A stretch of 64,000 nt of DNA from a virus. The position numbers and the translations under genes are program-made. The notes below the pieces were generated by a model. It did no database searches, was not told the DNA's origin, and worked only from the letters and a program-made list of their open reading frames with translations. Positions 5,247 through 64,000 of this stretch are shown here, piece by piece (position 1 is the first letter of the stretch; the number at the start of each line of letters is the position of its first letter). Location: IMG/VR virus record IMGVR_UViG_3300020183_000010; one strand, written 5' to 3'.

Positions 5247-5790
5247 GGTGAAGCTTTGAATATTTTTCTTTGTTAAAATTGTTACTCCTCATCAGACCAA
5301 CAACTATCAAATCTGATATCACAGACATACAGGTGGTTGATGTAGTAGGGGTTAATCCCATGGGACATATTTCTTCTACTGGGCCAAACTCTATATAGTC
5401 TGCACATTTTATAGATATATCTTCCGTTTTGGTTCCAACGATAGCGTATATGTAATTGTTGTATCCTAGATTATGAATTAGATCTATTAGTTCTATAACC
5501 TCTCTAGTCTTACCTGAATTACTAAAAACTATAATTATATCACCAGGCTGTATTATTCCCAAATCTCCGTGTTGAGCTTCTGAGGGATGTAAAAAGAAAG
5601 CTGGGGTTCCTGTAGAAGAAAGAGTTGTTGCAAAAGTGTGAGCTATTTGTCCAGCCTTACCCATTCCAGAAGTAATTATCCTACCAGAAGTTAAATTCCA
5701 ATGTATGTGTCTAATAATATCACCTACCCTTTCGACTGGTATTTTTCTCAGAGCTTCTATTTCTTTTTCTATCAGTGAATTATAATTCAT
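5212..5790 (-). CDS. kdsD: Arabinose-5-phosphate isomerase, single SIS domain without CBS domains
   Basis: [54 protein letters not shown]; the protein ends before any CBS pair. Confidence 0.9.
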
Positions 5791-12047: not shown

Positions 12048-12907
12048 ATTATATTAAAATCTTTATTAGTATAATTAAATGGCCTTATCGCATTTATTCT
12101 ATTCATATAGACATGAATTTGATTTTTTAAAGGAACCCTAGAATTAACATTCTCTAGTATATCCCCCTGGTTGTATTGATTATCAAATAATCTTATCTTA
12201 ATAGATTTTCTAAACCTAGGTATTACTGAATGTTTTAAAGCATCATGATCTAATTCACATAATCCCTCTTTTATTTTTTCAGTACAATGATTATCCCAAG
12301 CTGCTACCAATTTTCTAGTCTCCTCCGTATTTTTTAATAATAAAGGAGAGGCAAAAAATCCATCTATACTTCCGTTATGTGAGACCAGTCCTAAATCAAA
12401 TTCGTAAGAATCGTCAGAGAAAAGCTTTAGCTCTTTTTTTAAATTAGTATCAGCATCTATCCAAACTAAATTTTTATTAAACTCCTCCATCACGGACTTT
12501 ATAAAATATGGTTTAAAACAGCAGTTCTGGTGATAGTTCCTATCTCTTGGATATTGTCTTATTAAATAATCATACCCAAACTCGTCTAGTTTTTTAACTA
12601 ATCCATCTATTTTGGATGAATAAAAATCGCTATCAATAGGATCGGATATAAAAGATACAAATATAGTTTCCTTGTCGCTTATATTCTTCCATTCTTTTAT
12701 ATGTACTCTTTCTCTTGGATTTTCTATAGGTCTAAATAAATTCATATCTAAATTAATATCATTTTCTTCAGCTTTGCTATCTGGTTTATTCTCCTTTTTT
12801 TCGCTTTTATCACTAAGAATCCTAGCAATTGGATTAAATCCTCTGTTTATTAATTGTCTAGTTACTTTAATACCCCTTTTCATATTGAAAAATCTTTTAA
12901 AGTGCAA
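12044..12907 (-). CDS. DxD nucleotide-diphospho-sugar transferase (probable start 12883)
   Basis: FKPYFI...LVWIDAD...ASPL...DHDALK; paralogue of the next gene. Confidence 0.7.
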   Translation of the reverse strand: MHFKRFFNMKRGIKVTRQLINRGFNPIARILSDKSEKKENKPDSKAEENDINLDMNLFRPIENPRERVHIKEWKNISDKETIFVSFISDPIDSDFYSSKIDGLVKKLDEFGYDYLIRQYPRDRNYHQNCCFKPYFIKSVMEEFNKNLVWIDADTNLKKELKLFSDDSYEFDLGLVSHNGSIDGFFASPLLLKNTEETRKLVAAWDNHCTEKIKEGLCELDHDALKHSVIPRFRKSIKIRLFDNQYNQGDILENVNSRVPLKNQIHVYMNRINAIRPFNYTNKDFNII

Positions 12908-13518
12908 GAATCAAATTCATTGCTTCTTTTGATATTTTTTCTTAACACGTCTCTGGTGTAAACGTGTTTGTCTCTAACTCTAGATATCCCGTTACTTATA
13001 ATTTTTCCGTCACTGAAATCATTACTAGTAAAATCTTTATCTTTCATAACGTCTATCCATATTTTACCTCTAAATCTAGGAAGTAAAACATACTTAAGAA
13101 CATCGTGATCGAAATCTATATCATTACTTATTATCTTTTCTAGACAGATATCTTTTAAAGATTCCAAAAACATTAAACTTCTCTCGTTATATTTTATACA
13201 AAGGGGAGATGCTTTTATACCTTGAAGATCCCCAGTGTGACTAGCAAAAAGAATATCAGAATCCCATTTTTTAAATACATCGTGATATTGGGATATTTCA
13301 GTATCAACATCTATCCATATTAAATCCCTTCTTAGGGTAATTAATTTGTCATAAATAAAAGATGGTTTATGTAGGGTGTTCTTCCAATATTCTCTATATC
13401 CTCCTGATTTCTCTATCTCTATCTCTATACCCAATGATTTACACATAAAGTGAAGATTATTTGAACATTTTTCGTAATACGAATCACCAGAATAGAAAGA
13501 TATAAAAATAGGATTCAT
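12880..13518 (-). CDS. DxD nucleotide-diphospho-sugar transferase
   Basis: FISFY, HKPSFI, LIWIDVD, ASPL, DHDVLK. Confidence 0.7.
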   Translation of the reverse strand: MNPIFISFYSGDSYYEKCSNNLHFMCKSLGIEIEIEKSGGYREYWKNTLHKPSFIYDKLITLRRDLIWIDVDTEISQYHDVFKKWDSDILFASHTGDLQGIKASPLCIKYNERSLMFLESLKDICLEKIISNDIDFDHDVLKYVLLPRFRGKIWIDVMKDKDFTSNDFSDGKIISNGISRVRDKHVYTRDVLRKNIKRSNEFDSCTLKDFSI

Positions 13519-14255
13519 TAATCTATATTCAGTTTATTAAATAATATGTCACATAGGTTTCTATTGCTGGAGTAAGGTCTAGGCAAATGACAATCTATAT
13601 ATTCCCCTACGTTATAGTCAGTTTTAGGCCAAATAGCCTTATCTAATCTACGATCTGCATATTTTTCTTCTATCCAACCTCTTTCAAGATGTCTAATATA
13701 GTATCTGGATTTTCTTAGGGTTTGGTTGTAAAAAAACTTCTGATCTGTGCCACTTCGCATATTCATTCTTTTTAATCTTAGAAGAAAATCTAAATGGCTT
13801 TCTTCATTTAAATCTAACAGATCTGAAAAACTTTTCGGATCACCAGCAAGATAACACATTGGATATTGGGGGTTAGTCCTATACCATCTATATTTAATGA
13901 TATCTGAACTATATGATATTAATCCAGTGTCCCCTATGTACTCAGCGTTATTTATATAATAATCCTTGGAGATAGGAAGCATATCCATATCTGATATGAT
14001 GAATGGTTTATCCAGGAGGTTTGCTGCCCAGAACCTAATACATTGTGCCTGCTGTGCAATGTCCCAATCACTTCTTGCTTCTAGATAAAACACCTTACCG
14101 TGTTCGTAAACCCAAGCAGGAGGTGCCGCATTGTCTATATAAAGAAGAACAGGTTCTAATCCTATTAAATTCTTCCATGCTCTAGCTACATAGGGCCAAA
14201 AATCTAGATATTCTGGGTTTGAGTTAGAGCTAACTACTGCATATTCTAATTTCAT
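13518..14255 (-). CDS. Putative glycosyltransferase-like protein
   Basis: YLDFWP, ISDMDMLP (DxD), YPMCY, GTDQ, IDCHLPRP; lies inside the glycan cluster. Confidence 0.55.
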   Translation of the reverse strand: MKLEYAVVSSNSNPEYLDFWPYVARAWKNLIGLEPVLLYIDNAAPPAWVYEHGKVFYLEARSDWDIAQQAQCIRFWAANLLDKPFIISDMDMLPISKDYYINNAEYIGDTGLISYSSDIIKYRWYRTNPQYPMCYLAGDPKSFSDLLDLNEESHLDFLLRLKRMNMRSGTDQKFFYNQTLRKSRYYIRHLERGWIEEKYADRRLDKAIWPKTDYNVGEYIDCHLPRPYSSNRNLCDILFNKLNID

Positions 14256-14879
14256 CTATCTTCTTAGTCTGGAATTATAATTTGTATTCAATTTTTTATG
14301 TACATTTCTTGATTCTTGATAATGCTCTATAACGGGGGATGTCCTAGGATACATTATCTTCATATGATCATATATGAAAGTATACTCGGGAGGAAGATTA
14401 TAATATGAAAGATCCGTCATTTCTCTTTGAGCCCTTTGCATATTTTTTTGTTCCCACGTTTCGGGTTTCATTCTTTCTGCGGGGGTTGCCTTGTTTAATT
14501 GTATCCACCTGTCTACAAATCTTTTTACCTTATCGTTGTTCTTTAAAAATAATGTACCTGATAAAGCCTCATCTGACCTCCATTTAAAGTCTTGTGTTCT
14601 ATATGCTATATCGCAATCAAGATTTGGTATAAGATCTGGATATTGTTTAAATTGAGCATCCACATCAACATATAGTACGTCCTGATTTCTTGAATTTAAA
14701 ATATCTCTTATAAAATATGCTTTGTGGTGTGTATTCTTTTCCCATGAACCAAGATCATCAATTGCTTCTATATAATGAGGCAGACTAAAATTGTTTAAAG
14801 ATCTCCTAAGATTTTCAGCTAACACCTCGTATGATGTGCTTTCTGTGTAATATGCTATAACTAAAAACTGGGGGCTCAT
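14256..14879 (-). CDS. DxD nucleotide-diphospho-sugar transferase
   Basis: IAYYT, WEKNTHHKAYFI, VLYVDVDA, LSGTLF, WEQ, LPPEY, IEHYQESR. Confidence 0.7.
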   Translation of the reverse strand: MSPQFLVIAYYTESTSYEVLAENLRRSLNNFSLPHYIEAIDDLGSWEKNTHHKAYFIRDILNSRNQDVLYVDVDAQFKQYPDLIPNLDCDIAYRTQDFKWRSDEALSGTLFLKNNDKVKRFVDRWIQLNKATPAERMKPETWEQKNMQRAQREMTDLSYYNLPPEYTFIYDHMKIMYPRTSPVIEHYQESRNVHKKLNTNYNSRLRR

Positions 14880-15016
14880 AGGATTAAAATAAGATAGTAT
14901 TCATAACCTGGGATTTACTTCGTAAAAATTTTAGTCCCCGTTCGCAGGATAGTTTCATCTTTTAAGAAATATTTTTTTATGATGAATAATTTAATGTTTT
15001 TCTATATATAATATAA

Positions 15017-18499: not shown

Positions 18500-18530
18500 A
18501 AGCCCAGATTTTAAACTGGGCTTTTTCTTT
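18500..18530 (+). terminator. Rho-independent terminator
   Basis: AAGCCCAG-attttaaa-CTGGGCTT hairpin followed by a T-rich tract. Confidence 0.8.
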
Positions 18531-20049
18531 GTTTATCGATATATACATTATGGATTCTTCATTATTGGAAAAGTTTGTTTTTAAAGGCGTAAAAGGAAAG
18601 GAAAGACCTCTGACTGTTGTTATATTAACTACAAAATTAGGAAAAAGTTTAAAGAATGCTCCTAGCACGGATAAAATCATGAAAATATGTGAGGAAAGGG
18701 GGGTTAGATGTATCATAATAGATACTGAAAAAGGAGCAATACAGAAAACAAACAAGGGTACTTTTCTTATCTCTAGCAGGGGAGGAAAACAACAAGAAAT
18801 ATATCTAGACAGAACTATAGTTCTAACTAGAAGATCCTCGATTAAAAATAATGCAGCCAAAGGATTTTTTAAAAAAATGGAAGATCTAGGATTTCCTTGT
18901 GTGAATTCCTATGAATCTGTTATTATATGCGAGGATAAATTACAAACTACGAGAAAACTACAATTAGCTAAAATACCTGTTCCTAGAACAGCTTTAATAT
19001 CTTCTGAAGCAGACATTGATAAAGCTGTAGAGGAAGTTGGCGGGGAATACCCAGTTGTTTGTAAATTTCTTTCAGGAACTAAAGGAATTGGAGTATTTAT
19101 GATAGATTCCAGACCTTCTTTAGTATCTACACTCCAAGCTCTTTGGTATTTAGCTCATGGAACTGAAATAGTACTACAAGAAAAAATAGATGCTGATTAT
19201 GATTTAAGGATTCACGTAGTTGCAGAAAGTGATGGTATGGCTGGTAGAGAATACAAGGTCATAGCAGCTATGAAAAGAATAAAAATAAAAGGGGATTTTA
19301 GAACTAATTTCTCTCTAGGCGGTGATACAGAAAAAGTTAAACTTTCTAAAGAAATAGAAAAAATAGCTATAGAATCTGCAAAGGCAACAGGATGTCTTTG
19401 GTGTGGTGTTGATATAATAGTACAAAAAAATAAAAACGGGGACGGAGAGGAAAAACCTTATGTGTTAGAGGTTAATGCTTCTCCTGGAACAACAGGAATA
19501 GAAAAAACAACGGATATACCAGTTACTGATATGATCGTAGATTTTCTTTTAGATAAGAAAAACTGGGTCAAACCTAAAAAGATCACAGGATTTAGAGAAA
19601 TGATAACGGTATCTGGAATAGGAACATTCGTAGGAAAACTAGACACGGGAAACGGTGCAACTTCTTGTAGTTTACACGCTGATAGTATAGAAGAAGTTGA
19701 TGGAAGTGTTCACTGGAAATTAGGAAACGAGGAATTTGTAAATAAAATCGTAGGACAATCTAAAGCTGAGGTTGGTGAAAAAATTCATCATAGAGCGGTT
19801 GTTAATTTAGATGTTGATTTTAACGGTGTTGTTTATAAGAAAGTTAAATTTTCTCTAGTTGATAGGACAGAAAAGAGTACACCTCTTCTATTAAATAGAG
19901 ATTTCTTAAGCGCTGCTGGTCTTGTGGTTGATCCTTCAGAGGATTTTGTACTTACTGACAGGCCTGAGGGATATTCTCCTAAGGACGCTAAAGGAGATCC
20001 TATAGCTGGAGTTAATGTTATAAAATCAAATGGTAGCTCCTATAAATAA
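18529..20049 (+). CDS. RimK-family ATP-grasp ligase fused to a RimK-associated retropepsin-like protease (probable start 18550)
   Basis: DKLQT, IPVPRT, YPVVCK..SGTKGIGV, LQEKI, DLRIHVV, FRTNFSLGG, GVDII, VLEVNASPG; C-terminal KLDTGN...SLHA...LVDR...LLLNRDFL. Confidence 0.85.
   Translation: MFIDIYIMDSSLLEKFVFKGVKGKERPLTVVILTTKLGKSLKNAPSTDKIMKICEERGVRCIIIDTEKGAIQKTNKGTFLISSRGGKQQEIYLDRTIVLTRRSSIKNNAAKGFFKKMEDLGFPCVNSYESVIICEDKLQTTRKLQLAKIPVPRTALISSEADIDKAVEEVGGEYPVVCKFLSGTKGIGVFMIDSRPSLVSTLQALWYLAHGTEIVLQEKIDADYDLRIHVVAESDGMAGREYKVIAAMKRIKIKGDFRTNFSLGGDTEKVKLSKEIEKIAIESAKATGCLWCGVDIIVQKNKNGDGEEKPYVLEVNASPGTTGIEKTTDIPVTDMIVDFLLDKKNWVKPKKITGFREMITVSGIGTFVGKLDTGNGATSCSLHADSIEEVDGSVHWKLGNEEFVNKIVGQSKAEVGEKIHHRAVVNLDVDFNGVVYKKVKFSLVDRTEKSTPLLLNRDFLSAAGLVVDPSEDFVLTDRPEGYSPKDAKGDPIAGVNVIKSNGSSYK
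18538..18545 (+). promoter_or_regulatory. GATATATA late-type promoter motif
   Basis: Lies between the terminator and the ATG at 18550. Confidence 0.65.
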
Positions 20050-42729: not shown

Positions 42730-43212
42730 GACCTCTGATCTTAATATAGACATTATAATGGAATCTACATATCCATCTTTTTTTAGTATTTCCTCTCTCT
42801 TTATACCTTCTATTTTAAATCCCAATTTTTTGTAAAGATTCAATGCAATCTGATTTGTAGAAAGAACCTCTAAGCTTATCTTATTTAAAAATCTTTCCCT
42901 AAATAAAATACCCATGAATTCTTTGTAAGCATTAGAAGCTAAACCATTTCCCTTAAATTCTGGATGTATATCTGCTCCTATATACAGATTTTTATTTTCT
43001 TCTGAATAGTTAGATATTCTAAAATATCCTATTTTTTGGTCGTTGTAAAATATTATATGATAGTCAGGAGAGTATTTTTTGAACCACTCGATAGTTTGTG
43101 AAATGCTGAATTGTCTGGAGTCGTGTAAAAATTCTTGTGCGTATTGATTTCTTATAGAATTTAAAAATTCCAGATCCTCTAATTGTATTTTTTTAAATCT
43201 ATACATTACCAC
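42718..43212 (-). CDS. GNAT N-acetyltransferase (PseH/RimJ-like)
   Basis: IHPEFKGNGLA, LEVLSTNQIALNLYKKLGFKIEG. Confidence 0.85.
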   Translation of the reverse strand: MVMYRFKKIQLEDLEFLNSIRNQYAQEFLHDSRQFSISQTIEWFKKYSPDYHIIFYNDQKIGYFRISNYSEENKNLYIGADIHPEFKGNGLASNAYKEFMGILFRERFLNKISLEVLSTNQIALNLYKKLGFKIEGIKREEILKKDGYVDSIIMSILRSEVEDI

Positions 43213-44357
43213 CCCTTCTTAATACAATCTACGATGTATTCTCTATCTTCCTGGTTTACCCACCACCCAACAGGAATAGAAACAACATTAGGTATAGTTC
43301 TGTCTAATGTTGGTAATGGCGATACGTGGTCTTTTACACAAGTGTGCTTATCATTTCTTTCGTGGACCTGGCTTACTGATATTCCCTTTTCTTTCATATA
43401 TTTCATGAAAGAATCTCTTTTCTCTACTAATATACTATAAATCCAGAAAGATGACTCGAATCCATCCTCTCTTACTAAAGGGGTTAAACCTTGTATATCA
43501 TTTAGATTGGAATCGTAGTAATTCCCATTTTCTTTGTGTGCACCTATTATTTTTTCTACATCTTTTAAATTTTCTATACCTACGGTAGCAGAGACGTCGT
43601 TCATATGAAATTTAAATCCCCATTCTTCCACGTCTGCTTCGCACCTGAAATCTTTTCGGTCGCCCTCTCTGTCTATTCCATACCACCTTAAGAGTTTACC
43701 CCTATTAAATAGATCCTTATTAGGTACCATTAAAACCCCTCCGTCAACCGATGTAATGTGTTTTATTGCTTGTAAGCTAAAAGTGCATATATTTCCATGA
43801 TTTCCTAATAATTCCCCCTTGTACTTTGTTCCAAACGAGTGTGCACAATCTTCTATTACTGCAGGACTAAATCCATACAGATCTTTACATTTAGCTTGTA
43901 TCTTTTTTATTCTATCTAGATCATTAGGATATCCTCCCCAATGGACAAGCATTATAACTTTAGTTCTGTGAGATATTTTTCTTTCAAGATCATCTAGATC
44001 CATGTTGAGTGTTCTACTATCTATATCAACCCATTTTATCTTCATCCCATTAGCTAAAATAGGCCAATTAGATGCTGTACACGTTAAAGAAGTGCAAAGA
44101 GCTTCGTCGCCATCCTGTATACCTGGCCAGCTATCTTTTTTCTTTTTTAACATATGAATAGCTAGATGCTCTGCTGATGTTGCAGAATTAAGCGTCATTA
44201 AATAATCCTGATTAAAATAATCTCTAAGATTACTTTCAAACTCTTCTACTTTAGGTCCTTGTCCTATGTAACCGCTGTTAAGAACCTTAGCAACCTCAGG
44301 TGCTGCATTAGGTGACATGTAAACTTTAAATAACGGTATATTCTTTACGTTTTTCAT
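43206..44357 (-). CDS. DegT/DnrJ/EryC1/StrS sugar aminotransferase
   Basis: GPKVEEFE, NSATSA, VHWGG, IEDCAHSFG, FSLQAIKHITSVDGG (PLP lysine). Confidence 0.92.
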   Translation of the reverse strand: MKNVKNIPLFKVYMSPNAAPEVAKVLNSGYIGQGPKVEEFESNLRDYFNQDYLMTLNSATSAEHLAIHMLKKKKDSWPGIQDGDEALCTSLTCTASNWPILANGMKIKWVDIDSRTLNMDLDDLERKISHRTKVIMLVHWGGYPNDLDRIKKIQAKCKDLYGFSPAVIEDCAHSFGTKYKGELLGNHGNICTFSLQAIKHITSVDGGVLMVPNKDLFNRGKLLRWYGIDREGDRKDFRCEADVEEWGFKFHMNDVSATVGIENLKDVEKIIGAHKENGNYYDSNLNDIQGLTPLVREDGFESSFWIYSILVEKRDSFMKYMKEKGISVSQVHERNDKHTCVKDHVSPLPTLDRTIPNVVSIPVGWWVNQEDREYIVDCIKKGW

Positions 44358-47300
44358 TTTCTATAATTCTTTGCGTTGGTACTATTATTTCATCCTTATT
44401 ATCTGTAAATAGTTTTTCGTATCCGCCATCAGGATGTAGATGGTAAATAAAATAATAATCTCTTATATCAAAAACAGAAAATCCCATATTATGTATTACG
44501 TGAGTCTGATCTATCTGTCCGTTGCTTTCTTCATCTCTGTATTCTCCAAAGTTTTCCTCATTATGTGGTAACTTATTATATTTAGAAAAAACAGCTTCTA
44601 GAGCTAAAGAAGATGCAACACCTATACTGTTTCCTGCATGAACAGGAAATCCTTCTTTTTCGTCTCTTACTATTCCGCAAAGATATCCTGGATTATCTTT
44701 AGTGTTTAATATATGGATCATCTCCGAATCGAAATAATCAATATTAAATAAATAATCATCCTCTACAAAGAAATAGTAGTCAAATTCTTTTCTATATTTT
44801 TCGTAAACTGAAGAGAATGCACCATAACTCATTCCAATATTTTTTCTTAGCATTATTTCAGTGGTTGCATTTTGAATCCTGTCTGGAATAATCTCTTTTG
44901 CTTTTTTTATTAGTTCTATATAAGGTACCGTATTATCCATATTTATTGAGAAAATAATATGGTCGATGTTATGTTTATTTTTAGAAAGATATTCTATTTG
45001 TTTTTTAATAAAAAATAGTTTATCTCCTTTATATTCGTCCATCATAATTCTTCTCTCTCCGAAGTAGTTGTGTATCATCATACAGGATTTATATTTTTTA
45101 TTTTGTATAAATCCGATTCCCCCGAAGTTTGATTCTTCATCTATAAAATCGATCTTATTGCCTTTCATTTCATTCCATAGCTTGTCAACTCTACAGTTTG
45201 CGTTTCTGTGATATTCTGTGTCTTTAGTATCGTGAAATCCTATCCATCCTCCATCTTTTACAAATTCCTTATACATGTGGTAATCCTTCTTAACGCCTTC
45301 ATAGGTATGATCCCCGTCTATAAATAAAAAATCTAGAAGGTCCCCATCTAATATCGATTTAACATTTTCTTTTATGTTTTCATCATGAGAACTCCCGTGA
45401 ATTGTAGTAACATTATTTCCTAGGGATTTCAGGTAGAAATCTCTTTCGTTTACGTTATAAGTATTAACGCCATATGGTCCGTGTGGAAGATCAACAGATA
45501 TTCTTTTTCCATTCTCCGATAATTTACTCCAGATCGCAAATGTACCTCCTTGATCTGTTCCAATCTCCATAAAATTTTTGACTCCTAATGTTTTAAAGAA
45601 TTTAGCTGCTTCGTATATCTCTTTATGGTTTTGTACCATCCCTAGTGAGTATGATTCCCTAACAGCTGCATCAATATCGATGTTTTCATTATCCTTCTCT
45701 AGATATTCCTTAATTTTTTCTATAACATAGCTAGATGATATAGATTTAGTGCATTCAAATTGTCTATCCGTACCTTTTAGATCTGGACACCAATTCCAGT
45801 CACCGGCATCTAATCTTTCTCTATTAAAGCAACTGTTACATACATTTGAATTGAATATTCTAATTACGTTATCACCAGAAAATTCAGTGGTCGGATTGCT
45901 GAATCCTGATATAACAACAGTTGGTACATCCAATGACCACGAAAGCCAGCTTAAACCGGATCCTATACCTATGAACATCTCGCAGTTTTTTAAATAAGTT
46001 ATTGCCCTATCTAATGTTTTTTCTCCTTCCACGTATATTACACCTTCCGGATTTTTGTTCCCCATGTATCCATTTTCTTCTAAGCTAAGTAAAACTACTT
46101 TATTACCTGATTCATTAAGCCATTTAACAAGATCATTCCATCCTTCAGGATTATTCCAATATTTAGCTTGTGCTGTGGAGTGTACTGCTATACAAACATA
46201 TTTCTCTTCTATTGGTCTATCTGTTTCTTTAACTACTATATCAGCTCTTAGATCCGTATGAGGAAGTCCTAGTATATCAGTAGTTGTTGCCTGCATCGGA
46301 ATGTTTTTAAAATCCCTAGGATGACAGTCTTTATTAAATTCATTACCATTGTAAAACCATCCTATTCTATAAATAGCATACAGGTTATTTACTATTTGAC
46401 CAGGAGTAACGAATCTTATTTCTGGATAGTTTTTTTCGAATAGTTCATTTTTAAATGTGCTAACTATAACTTCACATCCATGTTTTTTTCTGAATTTTTC
46501 TATATGTGGAAACCAAGCAATAGAATCTCCTAGTGACGAGGACTCGAGAGATATTAATACTCTCTTCTCTTTTAGATCAATACTCTCCTCATACGTCTCC
46601 CCTGTTGATTTATCAATTATTTTTATTAGCCAATCCTTATAATATTTTATTGAGCACCTTGCCCATGTATTATTTTCTAACTCGCACGAATAATAAACAT
46701 TATTGTTAGATTTGTCTATAAATAAAACATCAAAGATTCTACCCTCAGCATTTTTTATTTCTATAAATGCACCGTCGATAAAATTAATATTAAAAGTAGG
46801 CCTGGCTGATTGTTTGTTAAGATTTAGAATAAGATCCTTATTTCTTATTATTATTGATGCCTTTTTAGTTTTTTTATCGTATTTAAATATCTGATTGTAT
46901 TTAGGGATCATTACTACAACCCCCCTATCCAGTTCAGAATCACTTATAGGATAAAAATTCATAGGATATGCTCCAACGGAGAAATCGAAAGATGAATCAC
47001 CTTTTATTATTTTTCCTTCCAAAGGCTCTTCGTTTCCTATAGCACATATATAATTTTTTCCGTCGTTAAGTTCTGTTCCTAAATACAGGTAGCTATTTTT
47101 TCCGTTCTTAGTTTTTATTTGTGGATAAGTTGGAAGTGTTATAGAGTTAAGTATATTCTTTTTAGAAATGTCGTGAGACATCCTCGTGTACATTTTTAAT
47201 CCTCCCTCATCAAAGCATTCATATAGGAAATCCTCCAATATAACAATACCTGGATATTTAAAATAGCTTTGTTTTGAATTTATTGGTTCGATTACTCTTA

Positions 47301-48999
47301 AGATGTCATCACTTAAACCAGAAAAGAATGCGGAGTTTATAGATTTTTCCTGATTCCATTTGTATGCAACTATTGAATTTTCGTTCAATAATTTTGAATG
47401 CTCTAAGAGTGTGTTTTCGTCGTCTATAACGTAATCATAGTTAACAAAATGTGTTTTATTAAATCCACACGATTTAGCTACTCTAGCACCATTTAAAATT
47501 AGTCTAAGAGCAGCGTATCCGTGATTAAAATCGAAAGAATAAGAAACCTCAAAATCAGGATATCTTAAATAGTGAACAGGAACTGTGTTCGATAAACTAC
47601 CATACTCTTCATGTGTAACTATAGGATTGTCGGTCTCGCATATAAAGTAATCGCATATTTTTAATATGTCTTCTGGTATTGAGATATGTGATGATATTAT
47701 TGTGAAATATCCCTGTCTTTTTAATGCTAATAAGCTTCTTTTTAGTGTTGATATCTTATCTGGTGTATCTGCGTGTGATAATATAACTGCTGCATCTTCC
47801 TTGTCATATTTTTCGAGTTGTAAATCACTAACACTTAATAAAGCTTTGTATCCTTGCTTTCCTATATTTTCCCATGAATAATTTTTTATTATTTCTTTAG
47901 CCTTTTCTTCTGCAGATATTTTTTTAGACTCGTAATTAAAATAACAATCCCTTAAAACTTCTATTAGATTGTCATAATCAGGTTCTGCATAAAGTCCTGG
48001 TGTACGTCCAGCAAATCCCAAGTCTGCTCCTATCGAAGCTGGTAATTCTTCCTTTATTCTAACTGGAGATCCTTTACCACTTGCAAACTCTAACTGAGCT
48101 CCCCAGTTAGAGTATATTGTAGGAGTACCCGCTGCCATTGTCTCTATTAGAGGTATGTTCCATCCTTCGCTTCTTGCGCAGGTAACAAGTACATTTCCTT
48201 TCTTTATATAAGAAATATACTCATCCCTAGATACAAAATGCTTTACCTTTATTCTTGGGTCATTAAATCCATAGAATGATAGTCTTTCTTCTGTGCTATT
48301 CATTCCGTCTACCGAATATGGGTTGTCTGCACTTAGTATAAGATCTATTGGTTCATTATTAGGAAAAGCTTTAATAAATGAATCTATTATTTCGGGGACA
48401 GATTTTCTATAATCCCATCTTCCAAAGAAAATAAATTTAAATCTATTGTTTCTATATTCTTCTGGTTCGTTTCTCTCTAATCCATCAAAGAATTCCTTAT
48501 TTACTCCTTCGTTTACTACAAATATCCTATGATTGGGATATCCTTGTTTCATTGCCATTTCTCTGTGCCATTCAGTAACGACCCATAGATAGTCAAATTT
48601 TAGTAACTGATTAAAGAAATTTTCAGGTAGCTCTGTACTTTCCCATACTGTATATGCTATCTTTATCTTTGAATTGTATTCTTCGTAAAAATAATGATGA
48701 TCCATATCCATTAGAACTATATCAACATCTGGGTTAAAATCGTTATTTATTTTTTTCCATTTGATGTTCGGAAATGAATGCGATATAGGATAATCTGAAG
48801 TTCCTCCGTCGGGATTAGTTAGAGTTATTTTGTCTATTATATTGGTATCCCTTTCGTCTAGATATTCTGGATTAGAATCCCACGTAAAATTCCGTACCCT
48901 TAAATCTACGTGATTTGAAAGTTCCCTAAAAAATTCTCTTGCGTGAGATGAGTATCCTGTTTTACCTAAATAACAAGTGTGTGCTCTTACTTTTAACAT
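44326..48999 (-). CDS. Multidomain glycosyltransferase: GT4-like + unknown + TibC/Aah-type (BAHT) protein O-glycosyltransferase + methyltransferase + DxD domain
   Basis: GT4: TGYSSHAR, TVWEST, GRWDYRK, EGWNIPLIE. BAHT: SLGDSIAW, YVCIAVHSTAQAKYWNN, FIGIGSGLSW, ISGFS, CNSC...WCP...EC. Methyltransferase: EIGTDQGG, FIDGDHTYEGV, GFHD. C-terminal FVEDD. Confidence 0.85.
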   Translation of the reverse strand: MLKVRAHTCYLGKTGYSSHAREFFRELSNHVDLRVRNFTWDSNPEYLDERDTNIIDKITLTNPDGGTSDYPISHSFPNIKWKKINNDFNPDVDIVLMDMDHHYFYEEYNSKIKIAYTVWESTELPENFFNQLLKFDYLWVVTEWHREMAMKQGYPNHRIFVVNEGVNKEFFDGLERNEPEEYRNNRFKFIFFGRWDYRKSVPEIIDSFIKAFPNNEPIDLILSADNPYSVDGMNSTEERLSFYGFNDPRIKVKHFVSRDEYISYIKKGNVLVTCARSEGWNIPLIETMAAGTPTIYSNWGAQLEFASGKGSPVRIKEELPASIGADLGFAGRTPGLYAEPDYDNLIEVLRDCYFNYESKKISAEEKAKEIIKNYSWENIGKQGYKALLSVSDLQLEKYDKEDAAVILSHADTPDKISTLKRSLLALKRQGYFTIISSHISIPEDILKICDYFICETDNPIVTHEEYGSLSNTVPVHYLRYPDFEVSYSFDFNHGYAALRLILNGARVAKSCGFNKTHFVNYDYVIDDENTLLEHSKLLNENSIVAYKWNQEKSINSAFFSGLSDDILRVIEPINSKQSYFKYPGIVILEDFLYECFDEGGLKMYTRMSHDISKKNILNSITLPTYPQIKTKNGKNSYLYLGTELNDGKNYICAIGNEEPLEGKIIKGDSSFDFSVGAYPMNFYPISDSELDRGVVVMIPKYNQIFKYDKKTKKASIIIRNKDLILNLNKQSARPTFNINFIDGAFIEIKNAEGRIFDVLFIDKSNNNVYYSCELENNTWARCSIKYYKDWLIKIIDKSTGETYEESIDLKEKRVLISLESSSLGDSIAWFPHIEKFRKKHGCEVIVSTFKNELFEKNYPEIRFVTPGQIVNNLYAIYRIGWFYNGNEFNKDCHPRDFKNIPMQATTTDILGLPHTDLRADIVVKETDRPIEEKYVCIAVHSTAQAKYWNNPEGWNDLVKWLNESGNKVVLLSLEENGYMGNKNPEGVIYVEGEKTLDRAITYLKNCEMFIGIGSGLSWLSWSLDVPTVVISGFSNPTTEFSGDNVIRIFNSNVCNSCFNRERLDAGDWNWCPDLKGTDRQFECTKSISSSYVIEKIKEYLEKDNENIDIDAAVRESYSLGMVQNHKEIYEAAKFFKTLGVKNFMEIGTDQGGTFAIWSKLSENGKRISVDLPHGPYGVNTYNVNERDFYLKSLGNNVTTIHGSSHDENIKENVKSILDGDLLDFLFIDGDHTYEGVKKDYHMYKEFVKDGGWIGFHDTKDTEYHRNANCRVDKLWNEMKGNKIDFIDEESNFGGIGFIQNKKYKSCMMIHNYFGERRIMMDEYKGDKLFFIKKQIEYLSKNKHNIDHIIFSINMDNTVPYIELIKKAKEIIPDRIQNATTEIMLRKNIGMSYGAFSSVYEKYRKEFDYYFFVEDDYLFNIDYFDSEMIHILNTKDNPGYLCGIVRDEKEGFPVHAGNSIGVASSLALEAVFSKYNKLPHNEENFGEYRDEESNGQIDQTHVIHNMGFSVFDIRDYYFIYHLHPDGGYEKLFTDNKDEIIVPTQRIIENEKRKEYTVI

Positions 49000-49061: not shown

Positions 49062-52000
49062 TTAATCAGGAACCCCGTTTGATAATGCTAAAAATTCAAG
49101 CTTACTTACCCAGTTTATATTAGTTGCAGCTACACCTGTTACTCTAAGCAATATATTAGCCCCACTTTGACCAAATGAAACTGTAGGAGTACCTGTCATA
49201 CCCTCTTGTGCAACCAAAGAAACTGTAACACCTTGCTGAGTAAGAGCCCCTGCGTTATTAGTAAAAACTGCTGATATTTCCCATCCCCCTCCAGTACTTG
49301 TTACTGAAGTAGGTGTTGCAACTACTATACCTTTAACGTAATAAGTGTATGCTGTATTTGTAGCTAGAGTTATAACTGTAGTAATTGTAGCATTAGTTGT
49401 TTGTGTTATTGTTGTCCCTCCTATAGTAGTATAAGTTCCATAGGTATTGTATCCAGTACCACCTATTACCAAAGCGCTATTTACTGAATCTACTTGGACA
49501 TATGATTCTCCTTGTATTAAACCAGAAGTACCAGTAGCAGTTAGTACGTAGTTATTTATGTTATTGTTAATAGATAATATTCCTGATGTTCCTGAAGATC
49601 CACTAGTTCCTGAAGTTCCATCCTTACCGTCATAAACCCATGATATTGTATATGTTTTACCCGAAGTAAGAGTACCATTAGCAACAACGTTAGTAACTCT
49701 TAAGTTATAATATGTTGTATTATTTACAGCAGATCCAGCTGAAAAGATACCTATAACATTATTACTTCCTAATTCTGTTATTTGTAAATAAACAACATTA
49801 CCGTTACTTATAATAGTTGATAATGCAGAAAGCCACGGTGCATAGTTAGTACCTGCATAGTCTGTTACGCTAATATTCATATTGGCGATAGCAGATATAG
49901 TGGAGCTTGCAGCGTTAAAGTCGTTTGCTGTAGGGTCACTAGGGTAAGCTGGTGAAGTTGTATAGAGCCATCTACCACTATTTGATCCGTCGTTTCCTGC
50001 AGTTCCACTAGTTCCAGAAGATCCAGATGTTCCAGAGCTTCCACTAGTTCCTGAAGTTCCCCTAGTTCCTGAAGATCCCGAGGTTCCCGAAGATCCACTG
50101 GTTCCTCTAGTTCCAGAAGATCCAGATGTTCCAGAGCTTCCACTAGTTCCTGATGATCCAGATGTTCCAGAGCTTCCCCTAGTTCCTGATGATCCAGATG
50201 TTCCAGAGCTTCCACTAGTTCCTGAAGTTCCCCTAGTTCCTGAAGTTCCAGAAGATCCACTAGTTCCTGAAGATCCACTAGTTCCAGAAGTACCATGTGT
50301 TCCTATTCCGCTAGTACCTGAAGTTCCCCCTGTTCCTTGATCCCCTGTTTTACTGAATACTAATACACAAGGCTCTGCATTAGAAGGTATAGTACCCGAT
50401 AGATACGTTACACCAAAAGTAAACCATCCAGTATTGTTAGTTACTGATGTTATTGCGAATGATGTAAATGTGGTATCTGTATTATTATTAGAATTAACTA
50501 GTAAATATCCTTTAATTGAATTAGTACCAGTTCCCCAACTTGTGAACGTTGCCGAGAAATCAACCGAGTTTATGTCTAATATGTCTATGTATATAGAAGT
50601 AATAGAACCAGGAGTTGCAGAATTGTATCTAAATAATCCAGTACCTGGATCTGCACTTAGAGTATTTGTGTCGAAATTATATCTTAATCCAGCACCATCT
50701 CCTTGTAATCCGCTGGTACCCGATGTTCCGTGAGTACCTATTCCGCTTGTTCCAGAAGATCCTGATGTCCCTCTAGTACCTGACGTACCTGATGTTCCAG
50801 AAGTACCAGCATCACCTTTATCACCAGTTCTATAGAATGTAATAACACATTCTTCTAAGTTTGTTGGAATTGTACCACTTATACCAATAACTGTAAGACT
50901 AAACCAACCAATATTTTGAACTAAAGATAATAATTGGAATTGATTGAATGTTGTATCAGAATTTAAATTTGATTTAATCTCAATAATACCCTTAACTGTA
51001 CTAGTACTATTATCCCAAGAACCAATTGATGTTACAAAACCTTGACCATTAACATCTGATGAACTAATAGCAATTGTTGCTGTAGTACCAACACTTGTTG
51101 TATCATATCTAAAATTACCTTGACCTGGATCAACAGAAACCCCTGTTGATGAATCAAAATTAAACCTAATACCTGCAGATTCTCCTTGTGCACCTCTAGT
51201 TCCACTTGTACCGGATGATCCCGAAGTTCCTCTTGTACCAGATGATCCAGATGTGCCGGATGATCCAGATGTACCTGAAGATCCACTAGTTCCTGATGTT
51301 CCACTGGTTCCTCTAGTTCCAGAAGATCCTGATGTTCCAGAAGATCCACTAGTTCCAGAAGATCCACTAGTTCCTGAAGATCCTGACGTTCCTGAGCTTC
51401 CACTAGTTCCAGAAGATCCTGATGTTCCAGAAGATCCTGATGTTCCACTAGTTCCTGACGTTCCACTAGTTCCTGAGGATCCACTAGTTCCAGAAGACCC
51501 TGACGTTCCACTAGTTCCAGAAGATCCACTAGTTCCAGAAGATCCACTAGTTCCTGATGTTCCATTTCCACTAGTTCCTGATGTTCCATTTCCACTAGTT
51601 CCTGATGTTCCAGAAGATCCACTAGTTCCTGATGTTCCAGAAGATCCTGATGTTCCAGAAGATCCACTAGTTCCAGAAGATCCACTAGTTCCTGATGTTC
51701 CATTTCCACTAGTTCCTGATGTTCCAGAAGATCCACTAGTTCCTGAAGATCCTGACGTTCCTGAGCTTCCACTAGTTCCAGAAGATCCTGATGTTCCACT
51801 AGTTCCTGAAGATCCACTAGTTCCAGAAGATCCACTAGTTCCCGAGGTTCCATTTCCGCTAGTTCCTGAAGATCCTGACGTTCCACTAGTTCCTGAAGAT
51901 CCACTAGTTCCTGAAGATCCTGACGTTCCACTAGTTCCTGAAGATCCTGACGTTCCACTAGTTCCAGAAGATCCACTAGTTCCAGAAGATCCACTAGTTC

Positions 52001-53333
52001 CTGATGTTCCACTAGTTCCTGATGTTCCAGAAGATCCACTAGTTCCTGATGTTCCATTTCCACTAGTTCCTGAAGATCCACTAGTTCCTGAGGTTCCATT
52101 TCCACTAGTTCCTGAAGATCCACTAGTTCCTGAAGATCCACTAGTTCCTGAAGATCCACTAGTTCCAGAGGTTCCATTTCCACTAGTTCCTGATGTTCCA
52201 GAAGATCCACTAGTTCCTGATGTTCCACTAGTTCCTGATGTTCCACTAGTTCCTGATGTTCCACTAGATCCACTAGTTCCCGAAGATCCACTAGTTCCTG
52301 ATGTTCCACTAGATCCACTAGTTCCTGATGTTCCACTAGATCCACTAGTTCCTGATGTTCCACTAGATCCACTAGTTCCCGAGGTCCCACTAGATCCGCT
52401 AGTTCCTGAAGTACCATCTATTCCACTAGTTCCTGAAGTACCACTAGTCCCCGCTCCTCCACTACCTGAGCCCTGAGCTGGATAAAGATATGATCCTGTA
52501 TTATCGCTAATTTTTATGTATACCGGAATTGGATTGGTTAAAGGTTTTATGTTAGTTACATAGGAAGGTGCCTGTGTGTTGTCAAAATATAAAACATCTC
52601 CAATGCTACCAGGAAGAACAAAAGGAGTAGTAACTATTCTTCCAAAGGGCCTGACGTTTATATTGCCTATCTCAGGCTCATCTATTGATGTAATAACACC
52701 AAATGCTTTTTCAACCTCTGTAGTTATAGAAGTGTTTACTATATTAAAAACCCCGTAAGGATCTAGATAAACTACCTGTCCTATGTTGTATGTAGAATAA
52801 ACCGTATTAGGTGAGTAGATATTAGCATAGCTAGATTTTACTATATTTCTGTATTGGAACCTAGCAAAAGCATCATCTATCCAATAACCGTTATCGTCCA
52901 AGTTTGAGGATAAAGCAGTAGCGATAAGAGCAGGTATCGGTGCTCCATCTTCAGATATCGGTATTGTTATACCATTTATTCCCTCTGTTGGGTAATTATT
53001 ACCTGAAACCGTATAATCGCTTATAAGATTATATAGATCAATATCTTTTAGTGTTACAGAAGCTTCTAAATTATTATTTACAGTAATTGAGGTAATTAGA
53101 AAAGCATTTCCGTTAGGCTGTAAAAGCCACATTCCCTCTTGTAAATCGTTTGCATCGAATAAAAAGTCTGGCTCCTGTGACGTTGGGGTAGCAATTATAT
53201 CCAATATACAACTAAAGGAATATGGATAATTGTTCCATACACTCGAGGGATTATTATAATAACTATCAACAACAACTGACCCAGTCCTCACTCTGGCAAT
53301 CATTGTTATTGGTAATAATGGGATTTGAGCCAT
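49062..53333 (-). CDS. Ser/Thr-rich collagen-like virion fibre protein
   Basis: Extensive G-T-S/G-S-S triplet tracts in four blocks separated by related beta-rich globular modules. Confidence 0.8.
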   Translation of the reverse strand: MAQIPLLPITMIARVRTGSVVVDSYYNNPSSVWNNYPYSFSCILDIIATPTSQEPDFLFDANDLQEGMWLLQPNGNAFLITSITVNNNLEASVTLKDIDLYNLISDYTVSGNNYPTEGINGITIPISEDGAPIPALIATALSSNLDDNGYWIDDAFARFQYRNIVKSSYANIYSPNTVYSTYNIGQVVYLDPYGVFNIVNTSITTEVEKAFGVITSIDEPEIGNINVRPFGRIVTTPFVLPGSIGDVLYFDNTQAPSYVTNIKPLTNPIPVYIKISDNTGSYLYPAQGSGSGGAGTSGTSGTSGIDGTSGTSGSSGTSGTSGSSGTSGTSGSSGTSGTSGSSGTSGTSGSSGTSGSSGTSGTSGTSGTSGTSGTSGSSGTSGTSGNGTSGTSGSSGTSGSSGTSGSSGTSGNGTSGTSGSSGTSGNGTSGTSGSSGTSGTSGTSGTSGSSGTSGSSGTSGTSGSSGTSGTSGSSGTSGSSGTSGTSGSSGTSGNGTSGTSGSSGTSGSSGTSGTSGSSGTSGSSGTSGSSGTSGSSGTSGTSGNGTSGTSGSSGTSGSSGTSGSSGTSGTSGSSGTSGTSGNGTSGTSGNGTSGTSGSSGTSGSSGTSGTSGSSGTSGSSGTSGTSGTSGTSGSSGTSGSSGTSGSSGTSGSSGTSGSSGTSGSSGTSGSSGTRGTSGTSGTSGSSGTSGSSGTSGSSGTRGTSGSSGTSGTRGAQGESAGIRFNFDSSTGVSVDPGQGNFRYDTTSVGTTATIAISSSDVNGQGFVTSIGSWDNSTSTVKGIIEIKSNLNSDTTFNQFQLLSLVQNIGWFSLTVIGISGTIPTNLEECVITFYRTGDKGDAGTSGTSGTSGTRGTSGSSGTSGIGTHGTSGTSGLQGDGAGLRYNFDTNTLSADPGTGLFRYNSATPGSITSIYIDILDINSVDFSATFTSWGTGTNSIKGYLLVNSNNNTDTTFTSFAITSVTNNTGWFTFGVTYLSGTIPSNAEPCVLVFSKTGDQGTGGTSGTSGIGTHGTSGTSGSSGTSGSSGTSGTRGTSGTSGSSGTSGSSGTRGSSGTSGSSGTSGSSGTSGSSGTRGTSGSSGTSGSSGTRGTSGTSGSSGTSGSSGTSGTAGNDGSNSGRWLYTTSPAYPSDPTANDFNAASSTISAIANMNISVTDYAGTNYAPWLSALSTIISNGNVVYLQITELGSNNVIGIFSAGSAVNNTTYYNLRVTNVVANGTLTSGKTYTISWVYDGKDGTSGTSGSSGTSGILSINNNINNYVLTATGTSGLIQGESYVQVDSVNSALVIGGTGYNTYGTYTTIGGTTITQTTNATITTVITLATNTAYTYYVKGIVVATPTSVTSTGGGWEISAVFTNNAGALTQQGVTVSLVAQEGMTGTPTVSFGQSGANILLRVTGVAATNINWVSKLEFLALSNGVPD
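51190..52450 (-). repeat. 9/18-bp coding repeats (GTSGSS)n, main block
   Basis: Recurrent ccactagtt, cctgatgtt and ccagaagat units on the + strand; shorter blocks near 50700-50810, 50000-50330 and 49580-49625. Confidence 0.95.
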
Positions 53334-53349
53334 CTATTTTTTTTAATTT

Positions 53350-56020
<2,671 letters not shown>

Positions 56021-56022
<2 letters not shown>

Positions 56023-61085: not shown

Positions 61086-62753
61086 TTAGATTTCCGCTGC
61101 TGCTTCCCCGCCTGCTGCTGCGTCTCCACCTGCTGCTGCGTCTCCGCCTGCTGCTGCGTCTCCACCTGCTGCTGCTGCGTCTCCTCCGGTAGCTCCGGTA
61201 GCTCCAGCTTTTCCTTCCTCTTCCGCTTTTTTCACATAGGACTTATTTAACTGTATATCCTCATAAGATAGATCTAGCCATCTTTCTATCATAAAGTCCT
61301 GGTCGAAGAACTGAACCTCTTCCTCATTTACTGTTTCTTTGACTTCCCCTAGTGCAGTAATAAAATCAATTCTTTTTATTAACTGCTCTATCTCTCTTGA
61401 TTCACCAAATAAATTATCGCTTTCAAACTTAACACCTATTTGACTTCTAAATTCAGAATCATTCTTAAGGTCTGGAAAATCTAGACACATTTGAATCCAA
61501 AGAGGCTTAACTATTATTTCTTGGAATATTGATCTTAGCCTAGTTATAAACTTAGCAAATCTTACCTCGTCTCTTTCCGCTCCGTCAGCACCTGTTTTAA
61601 AAACGTTATTTGATCCAACACCAAATCTAGAAGAAAATCTGTTGTAAGGTATTTTAGAATCTTGTCTTAACTTGTTGTAAAAATAAACAACTGAATCCAT
61701 AATGTTTAAATTCGGACCTTGTGCGTTAAGTGTTTCGATTTTAACAGATTCACCTCCCTGCTGCGGGAATAAATAATTTTTATAAAATTGTATATCCGGC
61801 CTACCATTTATTGATAATTCACCGGAAGTTGTATCTAATTTAATATCTTCTTTATACACAGACATTAATTCCCCTAAGGTTTCTTTAGCTTTTTGTGGTG
61901 CTTTGCTACCAATAGGAACAGTCATTTTAATTCTGTATTGTGCATTCATGACATTCCATATTATTCTAGAATGCTCCATAATTTTTAGTAGGTTATAAGA
62001 TCTTATTAATCTTTCTGTATAAGAAACCCTAGATACGGTGTTTGCTTTAGCATATGATATGTAGATAACCTGTGCATCTAAAAGTTTTCTTTGTCTAACA
62101 GTTTCTCCGTAATACTGCCACCAAATTGTTTCTCTAGTTCCGCCCGGTTTCTTTTCGACCGCTGGGGTTAAACTCACTGGGTCTAATTCCTTAAATCCTA
62201 TTATTTCTTTCCCGTCGTTTGAATAGATTATTTCAAAAGCTAAAAATCCCTCTACTACTAATTGTCTAAAGTATTGCCAAGCAGTTAAGCCATTAGCAAA
62301 ATTGTGTAAAACATATAGCTTTCTGAAATTTTTTCTCATAGCTTTTATGACGTCATCTTTGAGATCCATGCTCATTAGAGCTGGATGACAAAAGAAATTC
62401 TTTTCGTCATAAACTATAGCTTCGTCACATATTGTATCTAAAATATATTCGATCTCAGCGTTTAAAGCAAAGGTTCTAAGAAAATCTCTCTTGAATGGGT
62501 AATCCTTATCGAAATATGCTATATATTTTCTATTAGATGTATCCTGTGCTGCTATACTGTATATAAAATCCTCGTCCGAATCTGTAAATCCGAACCTTTC
62601 TCTCATATTAGCTTCAGATACACCTATTGCCATAGAGTCTTGGATAACCATATCCTTATACTCCATACCAAAAGATCCAAGACCACTAATAGTTTTTAAT
62701 ATCCTTGAGATATTGGGATTTATTTTTCCTAAGTTGTCTAAAAATCCAGCCAT
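61086..62753 (-). CDS. gp20: Portal protein (T4 gp20-like), paralogue A
   Basis: EIEYILDTICDEAIV, GFKELDP, SYTERLIRSYNLLKIMEH, FYNKLRQDSKIPYNRF, RDEVRFAKFITRLRSIF, F..DN.F.ESRE.E. Confidence 0.88.
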   Translation of the reverse strand: MAGFLDNLGKINPNISRILKTISGLGSFGMEYKDMVIQDSMAIGVSEANMRERFGFTDSDEDFIYSIAAQDTSNRKYIAYFDKDYPFKRDFLRTFALNAEIEYILDTICDEAIVYDEKNFFCHPALMSMDLKDDVIKAMRKNFRKLYVLHNFANGLTAWQYFRQLVVEGFLAFEIIYSNDGKEIIGFKELDPVSLTPAVEKKPGGTRETIWWQYYGETVRQRKLLDAQVIYISYAKANTVSRVSYTERLIRSYNLLKIMEHSRIIWNVMNAQYRIKMTVPIGSKAPQKAKETLGELMSVYKEDIKLDTTSGELSINGRPDIQFYKNYLFPQQGGESVKIETLNAQGPNLNIMDSVVYFYNKLRQDSKIPYNRFSSRFGVGSNNVFKTGADGAERDEVRFAKFITRLRSIFQEIIVKPLWIQMCLDFPDLKNDSEFRSQIGVKFESDNLFGESREIEQLIKRIDFITALGEVKETVNEEEVQFFDQDFMIERWLDLSYEDIQLNKSYVKKAEEEGKAGATGATGGDAAAAGGDAAAGGDAAAGGDAAAGGEAAAEI

Positions 62754-62759
62754 TTTATT

Positions 62760-63998
62760 TTATAGTGTAAATTCGTCTCCTCCTGTAGCTCCTTCAGCTC
62801 CTGTAGCTCCCTCTGCTCCGGTAGCACCTGCTTCAGCTTCAGCTGCTTTTTTCTTTTCCTCAGCTGCTTTTTCTTTAAATTTCCTGTTAGTTGTTAAATC
62901 TTGTCCTTTAACACCTAACCATCTATCTACTAAGAAATCCATACTGAAGTATTTTTTCCCTTGAGAGTTCATTAGAGCAGATATTTTAATTATTTGATCC
63001 TTTCTAGCTGTTAGAACCTCCATTTCTTTTGCTTCTCTGAACATGTTCTCTTTAACATAATCCAAACCAAACTCTGACTTTATTAAATAATCTTTTTTAA
63101 GATGTGGAAAATCCAAACAGAATTGAACCCATAAAGGCTTCATTAGTATCTCTTGATATATTGATCTTAACCTGTTTATAAATTTACCGAACCTAACCTC
63201 CTCTTGATCTAATCCCTCTGCGGTAAAAGTAATTGTTCCTTCGGATCCTGACTCCTCTCTACCGAATCTAGTAGCAGGTATTTTTGAATCCATTCTAAGT
63301 TTATTTGCAAAGTACTTAAGAACTGTTGTATCAGAGAATGCTGTAGCATCTCCTCCACCTGGTAAAGGTTGTATATCTGGGGTTCCGTTAGGAGAGGAAG
63401 GCATTAAATAGTTCTTAAAAAATTGAATCTTTGGTCTTCCGTCTACACTTAATTCCCCACTATCTGTATTAAGTCTTATATCCTCTTTATATATGGACAT
63501 TAGTTCTCCTAATGTCTGTTTAGCTTTTTGTGGGGATCTCGTACCAATAGGAACCGTCATTGCCATCCTGTATGATGAGTTCATTACGTTCCATATAATT
63601 CTGGTGTGCTCCATTATTCTAAGTAGATTAAATGATCTAATCATTCTTTCACAATAACTAACTCTGGATGATGTTCCTCCACCTTTAGCATAACTTATAT
63701 AAATTATCTGCGAATCATATAATTTTCTAGTTAATGATGGATTATCCGGATATTGTATCCATATATCGGTAAAACTCCCGTCAGGTTGTGATTCTACTGT
63801 TGGTATTAGTGACCAGGGATCTAATTCTTTAAACCCTACAATATTTTTACCTTTCTTGTCAAATACTATCTCAAAAGCTATATTTCCGTCTACTAGAAAT
63901 TTTCTGAATAAATGCCAAGCTGATATATCTTGATTAAATCCGAAAAGATTGTAGATCTCCTTATATCTTTTTTGGACTTTCTCATATGTTTCATCGTC
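62760..63998 (-). CDS. gp20: Portal protein (T4 gp20-like), paralogue B, 5' end outside the window
   Basis: The frame extends upstream of the annotated ATG (63644) to the window edge: DDETYEKVQKRYKEIYNLFGFNQDISAWHLFRKFLVDGNIAFEIVFDKKGKNIVGFKELDP. It is collinear with paralogue A. Confidence 0.88.
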   Translation of the reverse strand, partial: DDETYEKVQKRYKEIYNLFGFNQDISAWHLFRKFLVDGNIAFEIVFDKKGKNIVGFKELDPWSLIPTVESQPDGSFTDIWIQYPDNPSLTRKLYDSQIIYISYAKGGGTSSRVSYCERMIRSFNLLRIMEHTRIIWNVMNSSYRMAMTVPIGTRSPQKAKQTLGELMSIYKEDIRLNTDSGELSVDGRPKIQFFKNYLMPSSPNGTPDIQPLPGGGDATAFSDTTVLKYFANKLRMDSKIPATRFGREESGSEGTITFTAEGLDQEEVRFGKFINRLRSIYQEILMKPLWVQFCLDFPHLKKDYLIKSEFGLDYVKENMFREAKEMEVLTARKDQIIKISALMNSQGKKYFSMDFLVDRWLGVKGQDLTTNRKFKEKAAEEKKKAAEAEAGATGAEGATGAEGATGGDEFTL

Positions 63999-64000
63999 GA

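Follow-up and report, generated by a model that had tools for sequence, protein, structure and literature searches.

Two tandem portal genes kept since an old duplication in a T4-related jumbo phage lineage, and the possibility of a mixed portal ring

What does a tailed phage do with two portal proteins? No machine of tailed phages and herpesviruses is as conserved as the portal, and the solved examples consist of 12 copies of one protein. The viral DNA considered here, a stretch of 64,000 nucleotides from IMG/VR record IMGVR_UViG_3300020183_000010 (hereafter the window), carries at its right-hand end two tandem genes for portal proteins of the T4 gp20 type, designated A and B. Judged from their sequences, A and B are old, intact, equally constrained and never lost in contigs that span the locus. 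The reading that we favour, and to which we give an even chance, is that the two proteins build one mixed portal ring, probably with alternating A and B subunits, in which the interior functions are split between the subunit types.

A matched the Pfam family Portal_T4 (PF07230) over profile positions 9-431 of 433 (E 7e-61, 206.7 bits). The visible 412 aa of B matched the same family (E 1e-53, 183.1 bits), the curated cut-off of which is 22.9 bits. A also matched the portal family phrog_213 (E 2e-59), again together with B, and the sequence of T4 gp20 in the PDB when searched by phmmer (E 7e-18). The two proteins are collinear and share 50% identity over 377 aligned residues (E 1e-133). B ends in a TAA at 62760-62762, and some 127 codons at its 5' end lie beyond the window. 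The first in-frame ATG of B is at position 63644; its homology starts well upstream of there, so that A and B are paralogues and not halves of one gene. A split gene was rejected on the ground that the two overlap in homology over their full length. These results bear out what a sequence-only reading of the window had described, i.e., two adjoining gp20-like genes 6 nt apart (the spacer is AATAAA), collinear but clearly diverged, the second of which reaches beyond its listed open reading frame (ORF) start. The low-complexity tails that it had noted, of the (GGDAAA)n and (GATGAE)n types, are likewise present, as are the peptides it had quoted. AlphaFold2 monomer models of A and B were of low confidence (predicted local distance difference test, pLDDT, 53.7 and 56.0) and presented the secondary-structure elements in the same order. 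Foldseek searches with these low-confidence models returned T4 gp20 chains at the top (E 1e-14 to 1e-10), with template modelling scores of only ~0.3.

The same reading had allowed that B might be truncated or that the duplication might be restricted to this contig; neither proved to be the case. An IMG/VR search with B retrieved 80 contigs at 76-97% identity. All of them that span the region encode B as a closed ORF (527-549 aa, N-terminus MAGF), with an A of 517-561 aa following after 2-11 nt. In the closest relatives (96-97% identical) B has 537-543 aa and starts with MAGFTD. A full-length orthologue in the relative L007 (L007:9620-11230, 537 aa) matched PF07230 at positions 8-431 of 433 (E 2.4e-59, 201.6 bits). 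Exact-match scans of metagenome and viral contigs for the last bases of the window found none. Two further searches, one with a profile of A plus B and one with the most distant A-type copy as query, added remoter contigs. In a six-frame census of all loci, the order B then A was found in 201 of the 201 contigs that span both genes; the remaining 21 loci had a single copy, and in all 21 the partner was removed by the end of the contig. Across the 169 related loci with both ORFs closed, the genes lie on the same strand, separated by 2-23 nt. The gap is in frame in only about half of these loci, so that read-through fusion is not required; with a stop codon present as well, this possibility was rejected. 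In-frame stops were observed within B at L053:1542-3164 and L185:2361-3986, and a frameshift at L148:1-1059. The window stretch was contained in 24 sequencing runs, all of them of lake or freshwater DNA.

Each of six long records encodes exactly two portal genes genome-wide, which departs from the one portal gene per genome of the canonical homododecameric portal. The partial records among them measure 153-245 kb at an estimated completeness of 53-86%, which gives genomes of ~270-290 kb; the sixth, of 430 kb, is complete and has terminal repeats.

In trees calculated from representative pairs, one of them by a quick search, A and B together formed one clade (Shimodaira-Hasegawa-like approximate likelihood ratio test support 99-100) that divides into a separate A clade (89-93) and a separate B clade (89-98) with mirrored internal branching. 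A smaller third tree supported B at 98 and A at 79, the latter drawn as unresolved. The nearest outgroups, i.e., LR756500 with its IMG/VR relatives, LR756501, LR756502 and LR756504, have one full portal each; a suspected second portal in LR756501 was rejected, being only a 101-aa fragment. With this query, no record with two full portal copies was found in a collection of 50,697 phage genomes. Separate, mirrored clades combined with single-portal sister lineages place the origin of the A/B pair in one old duplication, and the two copies are indeed old separate clades in related phages, a point on which the sequence-only reading had called for a phylogeny.

Neither copy looks degenerate by its sequence. 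The median ratio of nonsynonymous to synonymous substitution (dN/dS), calculated by the Nei-Gojobori method from unsaturated orthologue pairs, was 0.026 for A and 0.033 for B. Relaxed selection on B, which had been raised as a possibility, was thus not seen, both genes being under strong purifying selection at a ratio of ~0.03; among close pairs B had a somewhat higher dN. Their Pfam scores (207 bits for A and 202 for B) are slightly under those of the nearest single portals (239-259 bits). Copy-specific conserved sites are few and symmetric, with neither A nor B nearer to the outgroup state. When A and B of one genome are compared, all 40-codon windows are saturated for synonymous differences, that of the 79%-identical stem included, so that the likeness of the two comes from selection and not from recent gene conversion, which was rejected for the core on this basis.

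The likeness is unevenly spread over the protein. With the domain limits of gp20 (Sun et al., 2015; PMC4493910) transferred through the phmmer alignment, A and B from the same genome are most alike in stem helix alpha-5 (79% identity), followed by the clip (56%) and the wing (52-58%). The N-terminus is 42% identical, the tunnel loop 34%, the crown 28% and the tail 20%. The only main-chain sheet that joins one T4 gp20 subunit to the next is formed by the clip, and the tunnel loops are in contact with their neighbours (PMC4493910). Set against these contacts, the identities indicate that the parts which form contacts have remained similar and that those facing the interior have diverged.

The tails differ in a further respect. 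After its low-complexity linker, one of the two proteins ends in a short peptide of the form [DES]-F-[TKN]-[LI], e.g., GDEFTL or GESFTL, and the owner of this peptide changes between groups. In the subclade of the window, B is the owner in all 43 unique pairs that carry it and A in none; the sister subclade shows the opposite, with A the owner in 44 of 44 unique pairs and B in none. In contigs of 430-434 kb, A and B both end in EEKPPQVTL. In the clade of A as in that of B, these contigs form the sister group of the A-only subclade, which makes an ancestor with the peptide on both proteins, followed by reciprocal loss, the simplest history. The single-portal outgroups have an aromatic C-terminal motif after such a linker (e.g., NFDF or EFEF), and no other ORF in the window ends in a peptide of the [DES]-F-[TKN]-[LI] type. 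Since the peptide is found on B only, on A only or on both, depending on the group, either copy can supply it. This is expected if both tails hang from one assembly, and is hard to fit with separately placed rings or with alternative homomeric portals. In two contigs (L024 and L028) A and B have almost the same tail, ending in GGDMGTI in both proteins, which suggests exchange or recombination between the low-complexity tails of the paralogues.

A second duplicated gene accompanies the portals. In an all-against-all comparison of the proteins of a 245-kb relative (G003), only two structural paralogue pairs were found, namely the portals and the tail tube. The tube genes are tandem and unfused, encode proteins of 190 and 192 aa that are 52% identical, and stand directly after the tail sheath gene (L252:3828-4988, equivalent to G003 123828-124988). 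They matched the tail tube families phrog_45, phrog_3629 and phrog_4542 (E 7e-6 to 3e-4) as well as phrog_32623 (E 1e-27 to 1e-31), and the gene upstream of them is a tail sheath gene by phrog_34521 (E 1e-113); similarity to tube families and a position after the sheath both identify them as myophage tail tube proteins. The Pfam gp19 tube model gave no match anywhere, controls included, and was hence uninformative. The tube gene is paired in tandem in six of the six two-portal records (G001-G006) and single in five of five one-portal relatives. In G002, a close relative with portals 93-95% identical to those of the window, the tube pair lies ~17 kb from the portal pair, and at this spacing it would fall beyond the end of the window. 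The tube copies of the two-portal genomes form one clade (94/93), the inside of which is unresolved. Together, the portal pair and the doubled tube suggest, without proving it, a DNA channel made of two kinds of subunit.

Several other explanations were weighed. Each particle might carry two separate homo-oligomeric rings, i.e., a classical portal plus a second ring that is stacked inside or placed at a second vertex and serves a different step (e.g., packaging versus exit). Both copies do keep the complete portal architecture under equal constraint, as any ring-former needs, and it is in the crown, tunnel loop and tail that they are least alike, as would follow if each ring had its own partners; Mimivirus is reported to use distinct packaging and exit portals (PMC2430901), which makes two DNA gates in one capsid conceivable. 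However, an end peptide that moved between the paralogues across subclades is hard to fit with different places and jobs, and the blocks in which the paralogues are best conserved are the ones engaged in contacts between subunits. No tailed phage with two portal vertices is known, and we regard separate rings as unlikely. The sequence-only reading had offered a heteromeric, for example alternating, ring or two specialised vertices; the ring is the best fit to the retention of the peptide and to the co-duplicated tube, and the two vertices are rated lower.

It is also conceivable that A and B are alternatives, so that a particle uses either 12 copies of A or 12 copies of B, giving two types of particle, e.g., for different hosts, conditions or head sizes. 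Alternative forms can be encoded by paralogues of structural genes, and both copies look fully competent. This explanation has to contend, however, with a shared operon in which the genes are separated by only 2-23 nt and by no regulatory signal, and with the fact that neither was lost in 201 contigs across a deep divergence. Moreover, if the peptide matters for assembly, each homomeric ring needs it, yet in two large subclades one copy always lacks it. We consider alternative portals decidedly improbable. Lower still, if only slightly, we would place a role of one copy outside the virion, as an assembly factor, a packaging regulator or a decoy for host defences that sense portals. The single lesions confined to B and its somewhat higher dN among close pairs would agree with such a role. 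By contrast, both copies conserve all domains, from the MAGF N-terminus through the stem and clip to the long flexible tail, purifying selection is strong on each, and in the sister subclade it is B that lost the end peptide, so that neither copy is consistently the lesser one. Finally, the pair might be an artefact or a decaying duplicate of recent origin, found in this contig alone; only the cut of B by the window end speaks for this. It is already refuted by more than 200 independent contigs from many samples that carry the pair and by copies that are only 50% identical, saturated at synonymous sites and both constrained, and it can be given virtually no credence.

Weighing against the mixed ring itself are the following points. 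The ring presupposes contact between A and B and the presence of both in virions, and the portals solved to date are, to our knowledge, all homo-oligomers. Of 169 contigs, three have a single lesion in B and none has a broken A; the lesions may be assembly errors, or may hint at rare defective or B-less variants and at a more dispensable B. The pattern of the end peptide goes back to one or two evolutionary events and not to many independent ones, as does the co-occurrence of doubled portals and tubes; one duplication is not told apart from two in the tube tree, and the monomer models of A and B are poor (pLDDT 54 and 56).

In the mixed-ring model, A and B would be essential, non-redundant subunits of the portal vertex in an uncultured lineage of T4-related jumbo phages with genomes of ~270-430 kb. 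The genes would be transcribed together, B first, within a late head operon, and their products made in similar amounts. These would form a single mixed ring of 12 subunits, most simply an alternating A6B6 with six-fold symmetry, on which the prohead would be built, through which the terminase would pack the DNA and to which neck and tail would bind. The parts that line the channel and join the subunits (stem, clip and wing) would have been kept alike, and those of the interior and the DNA valve (crown, tunnel loop and C-terminal tail) would have diverged, their jobs seemingly divided; only one subunit type would need the F-T/K-L peptide on its flexible tail. With the tail tube apparently doubled on that branch too, the symmetry of the DNA conduit may have been halved along its whole length. 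A more far-reaching version, to which we hold tentatively and at less than even chances, is an obligate A6B6 hetero-dodecameric portal feeding a hetero-hexameric tube of three plus three subunits, the whole conduit thus being at half the usual symmetry and the interior-facing functions (valve loop, crown and tethered C-terminal peptide) being shared out. The sequences themselves establish how the genes are built, their conservation, selection and phylogeny, and the co-occurrence with the tube pair; co-assembly, the stoichiometry and a binding partner for the end peptide are what we infer in either version.

The system most similar to A and B is T4 gp20 (PF07230; PDB 3JA7, 6UZC, 9MKB and 9LU6/9LU7), the family profile of which both proteins match from end to end. 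As in T4, the head module around the pair includes gp2-like and gp4-like genes, a gp21-type protease and a gp23-type capsid gene. In contrast to T4, in which gp20 is one gene and forms a homododecamer, two paralogues that are 50% identical are here kept together; unlike gp20, they have long low-complexity C-terminal tails, one ending in a conserved peptide. The nearest portals in the collection of phage genomes, at 35-46% identity, are those of Lak phages and of the uncultured single-portal huge phages LR756500, LR756501, LR756502 and LR756504 (462-735 kb). These phages share the MAGF/MASY N-terminus, the low-complexity tail and the aromatic end (e.g., NFDF or EFEF), but differ in having one full portal gene and one tail-tube gene each.

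A duplicated structural gene whose products take different positions in one capsid is familiar from gp23 and gp24 of T4, although gp24 forms pentamers of its own, does not mix into a ring with gp23, and belongs to the capsid shell rather than the portal. Doubled tubes also have precedents. Each chain of T5 pb6 contains two tube domains, and its trimeric rings have pseudo-six-fold symmetry (PMC10038345). Phage G has adjacent tube genes, gp179 and gp180, both products being detected by proteomics, and a single portal is described for it (gp14). We know of no second portal in T5. The tube pair of the present lineage is unfused, and it co-occurs with a portal pair.

The positions of the two portal genes and of their parts are given in Table 1.

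Table 1. Portal genes A and B of the window and the elements recognised within them.
Feature	Coordinates	Strand	Basis or remark
Portal paralogue A, complete, 555 aa	61086..62753	-	stop 61086-61088; ORF; PF07230, phrog_213
Low-complexity tail of A, (GGDAAA)n type, without the conserved end peptide	61089..61226	-	
Stem helix alpha-5 equivalent of A, residues ~249-272, block most conserved between A and B	61938..62009	-	gp20 alignment
Spacer AATAAA, 6 nt, from the stop of B to the ATG of A	62754..62759	-	
Portal paralogue B, 3' 412 codons plus stop	62760..64000	-	open frame to the window end
End peptide GDEFTL of B, [DES]-F-[TKN]-[LI]-COOH	62763..62780	-	
Low-complexity E/A/G/K/T linker of B, (GATGAE)n type	62781..62882	-	
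Stem helix alpha-5 equivalent of B	63573..63644	-	alignments

The surroundings are those of a T4-type portal. Upstream of B, the relatives encode in order a gp55-like late sigma factor, a gp4-like head closure protein and a gp2-like DNA end protector; A is followed by a DNA ligase, a clamp loader, a guanylate kinase and a 5'-3' exonuclease. The window also encodes a gp23-type capsid protein, a gp21-type protease, collagen-like tail fibres and a sugar-modification cluster. With gp4-like and gp2-like genes upstream and the protease and capsid genes in the window, the pair sits in a head-morphogenesis module, as a T4-type portal should. No terminator or promoter was found between B and A, and no forward-strand terminator in L007. 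The T4 late-promoter motif TATAAATA was not enriched in L007 (4 matches vs 4.45 expected), and a scan for sigma-70 promoters remained below the shuffled expectation. No tRNA genes were found in the window.

Other genes of the window and its relatives were recorded in passing. The gp4-like 'head closure' gene before the portals of L007 (L007:8530-9027) has a match to a TnsA-like endonuclease N-terminal domain (PF08722, E 1.5e-14). On the minus strand of the window, positions 44326-48999 hold a 1557-aa ORF with an N-terminal glycosyltransferase match and methyltransferase-like residues at ~1204-1288, with an aminotransferase gene (43206-44357) and other genes for sugar enzymes on its flanks; this region may be a module for virion or DNA glycosylation. 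Positions 49062-56022 on the minus strand, where the G+C content is 0.40-0.42 as against ~0.32 elsewhere, are taken up by two tail-fibre genes of great length (1423 and 890 aa) with collagen repeats. Also on this strand are three neighbouring ORFs of ~210-290 aa at 12044-14900, which are paralogues of one another at ~31% identity, and two adjoining nucleotide-sugar epimerase genes at 5780-7722 (phrog_540), of which G003 has three. A 506-aa ORF on the opposite, plus strand (18529-20049) resembles RimK-like 'ribosomal protein S6 glutaminyl transferase' (phrog_2599, E 2e-17). G003 further encodes two radical-SAM paralogues of 461 and 481 aa that are 36% identical (L249:9830-13235, i.e., G003 69827-73235), adjoining a further two paralogues (470-480 aa) that match glycosyltransferases weakly.

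In the literature searched on portals that are doubled, paralogous or heteromeric, a phage with two portal genes was not encountered. As far as we know, the owner-switching end peptide, the exact match of portal and tube doubling in the ingroup and the outgroups, and the lack of recent gene conversion are new. The lineage that carries the locus is large and natural, and would have required two different portal subunits from an old duplication onwards, as well as two tube subunits. If the mixed ring is real, it would be a hetero-oligomeric portal, of which we found none described, and the lineage would amount to a natural experiment in which homomeric rings became obligate heteromers. It would also bear on how phages handle the symmetry mismatch between the capsid (5), the portal (12) and the tail (6 or 3).

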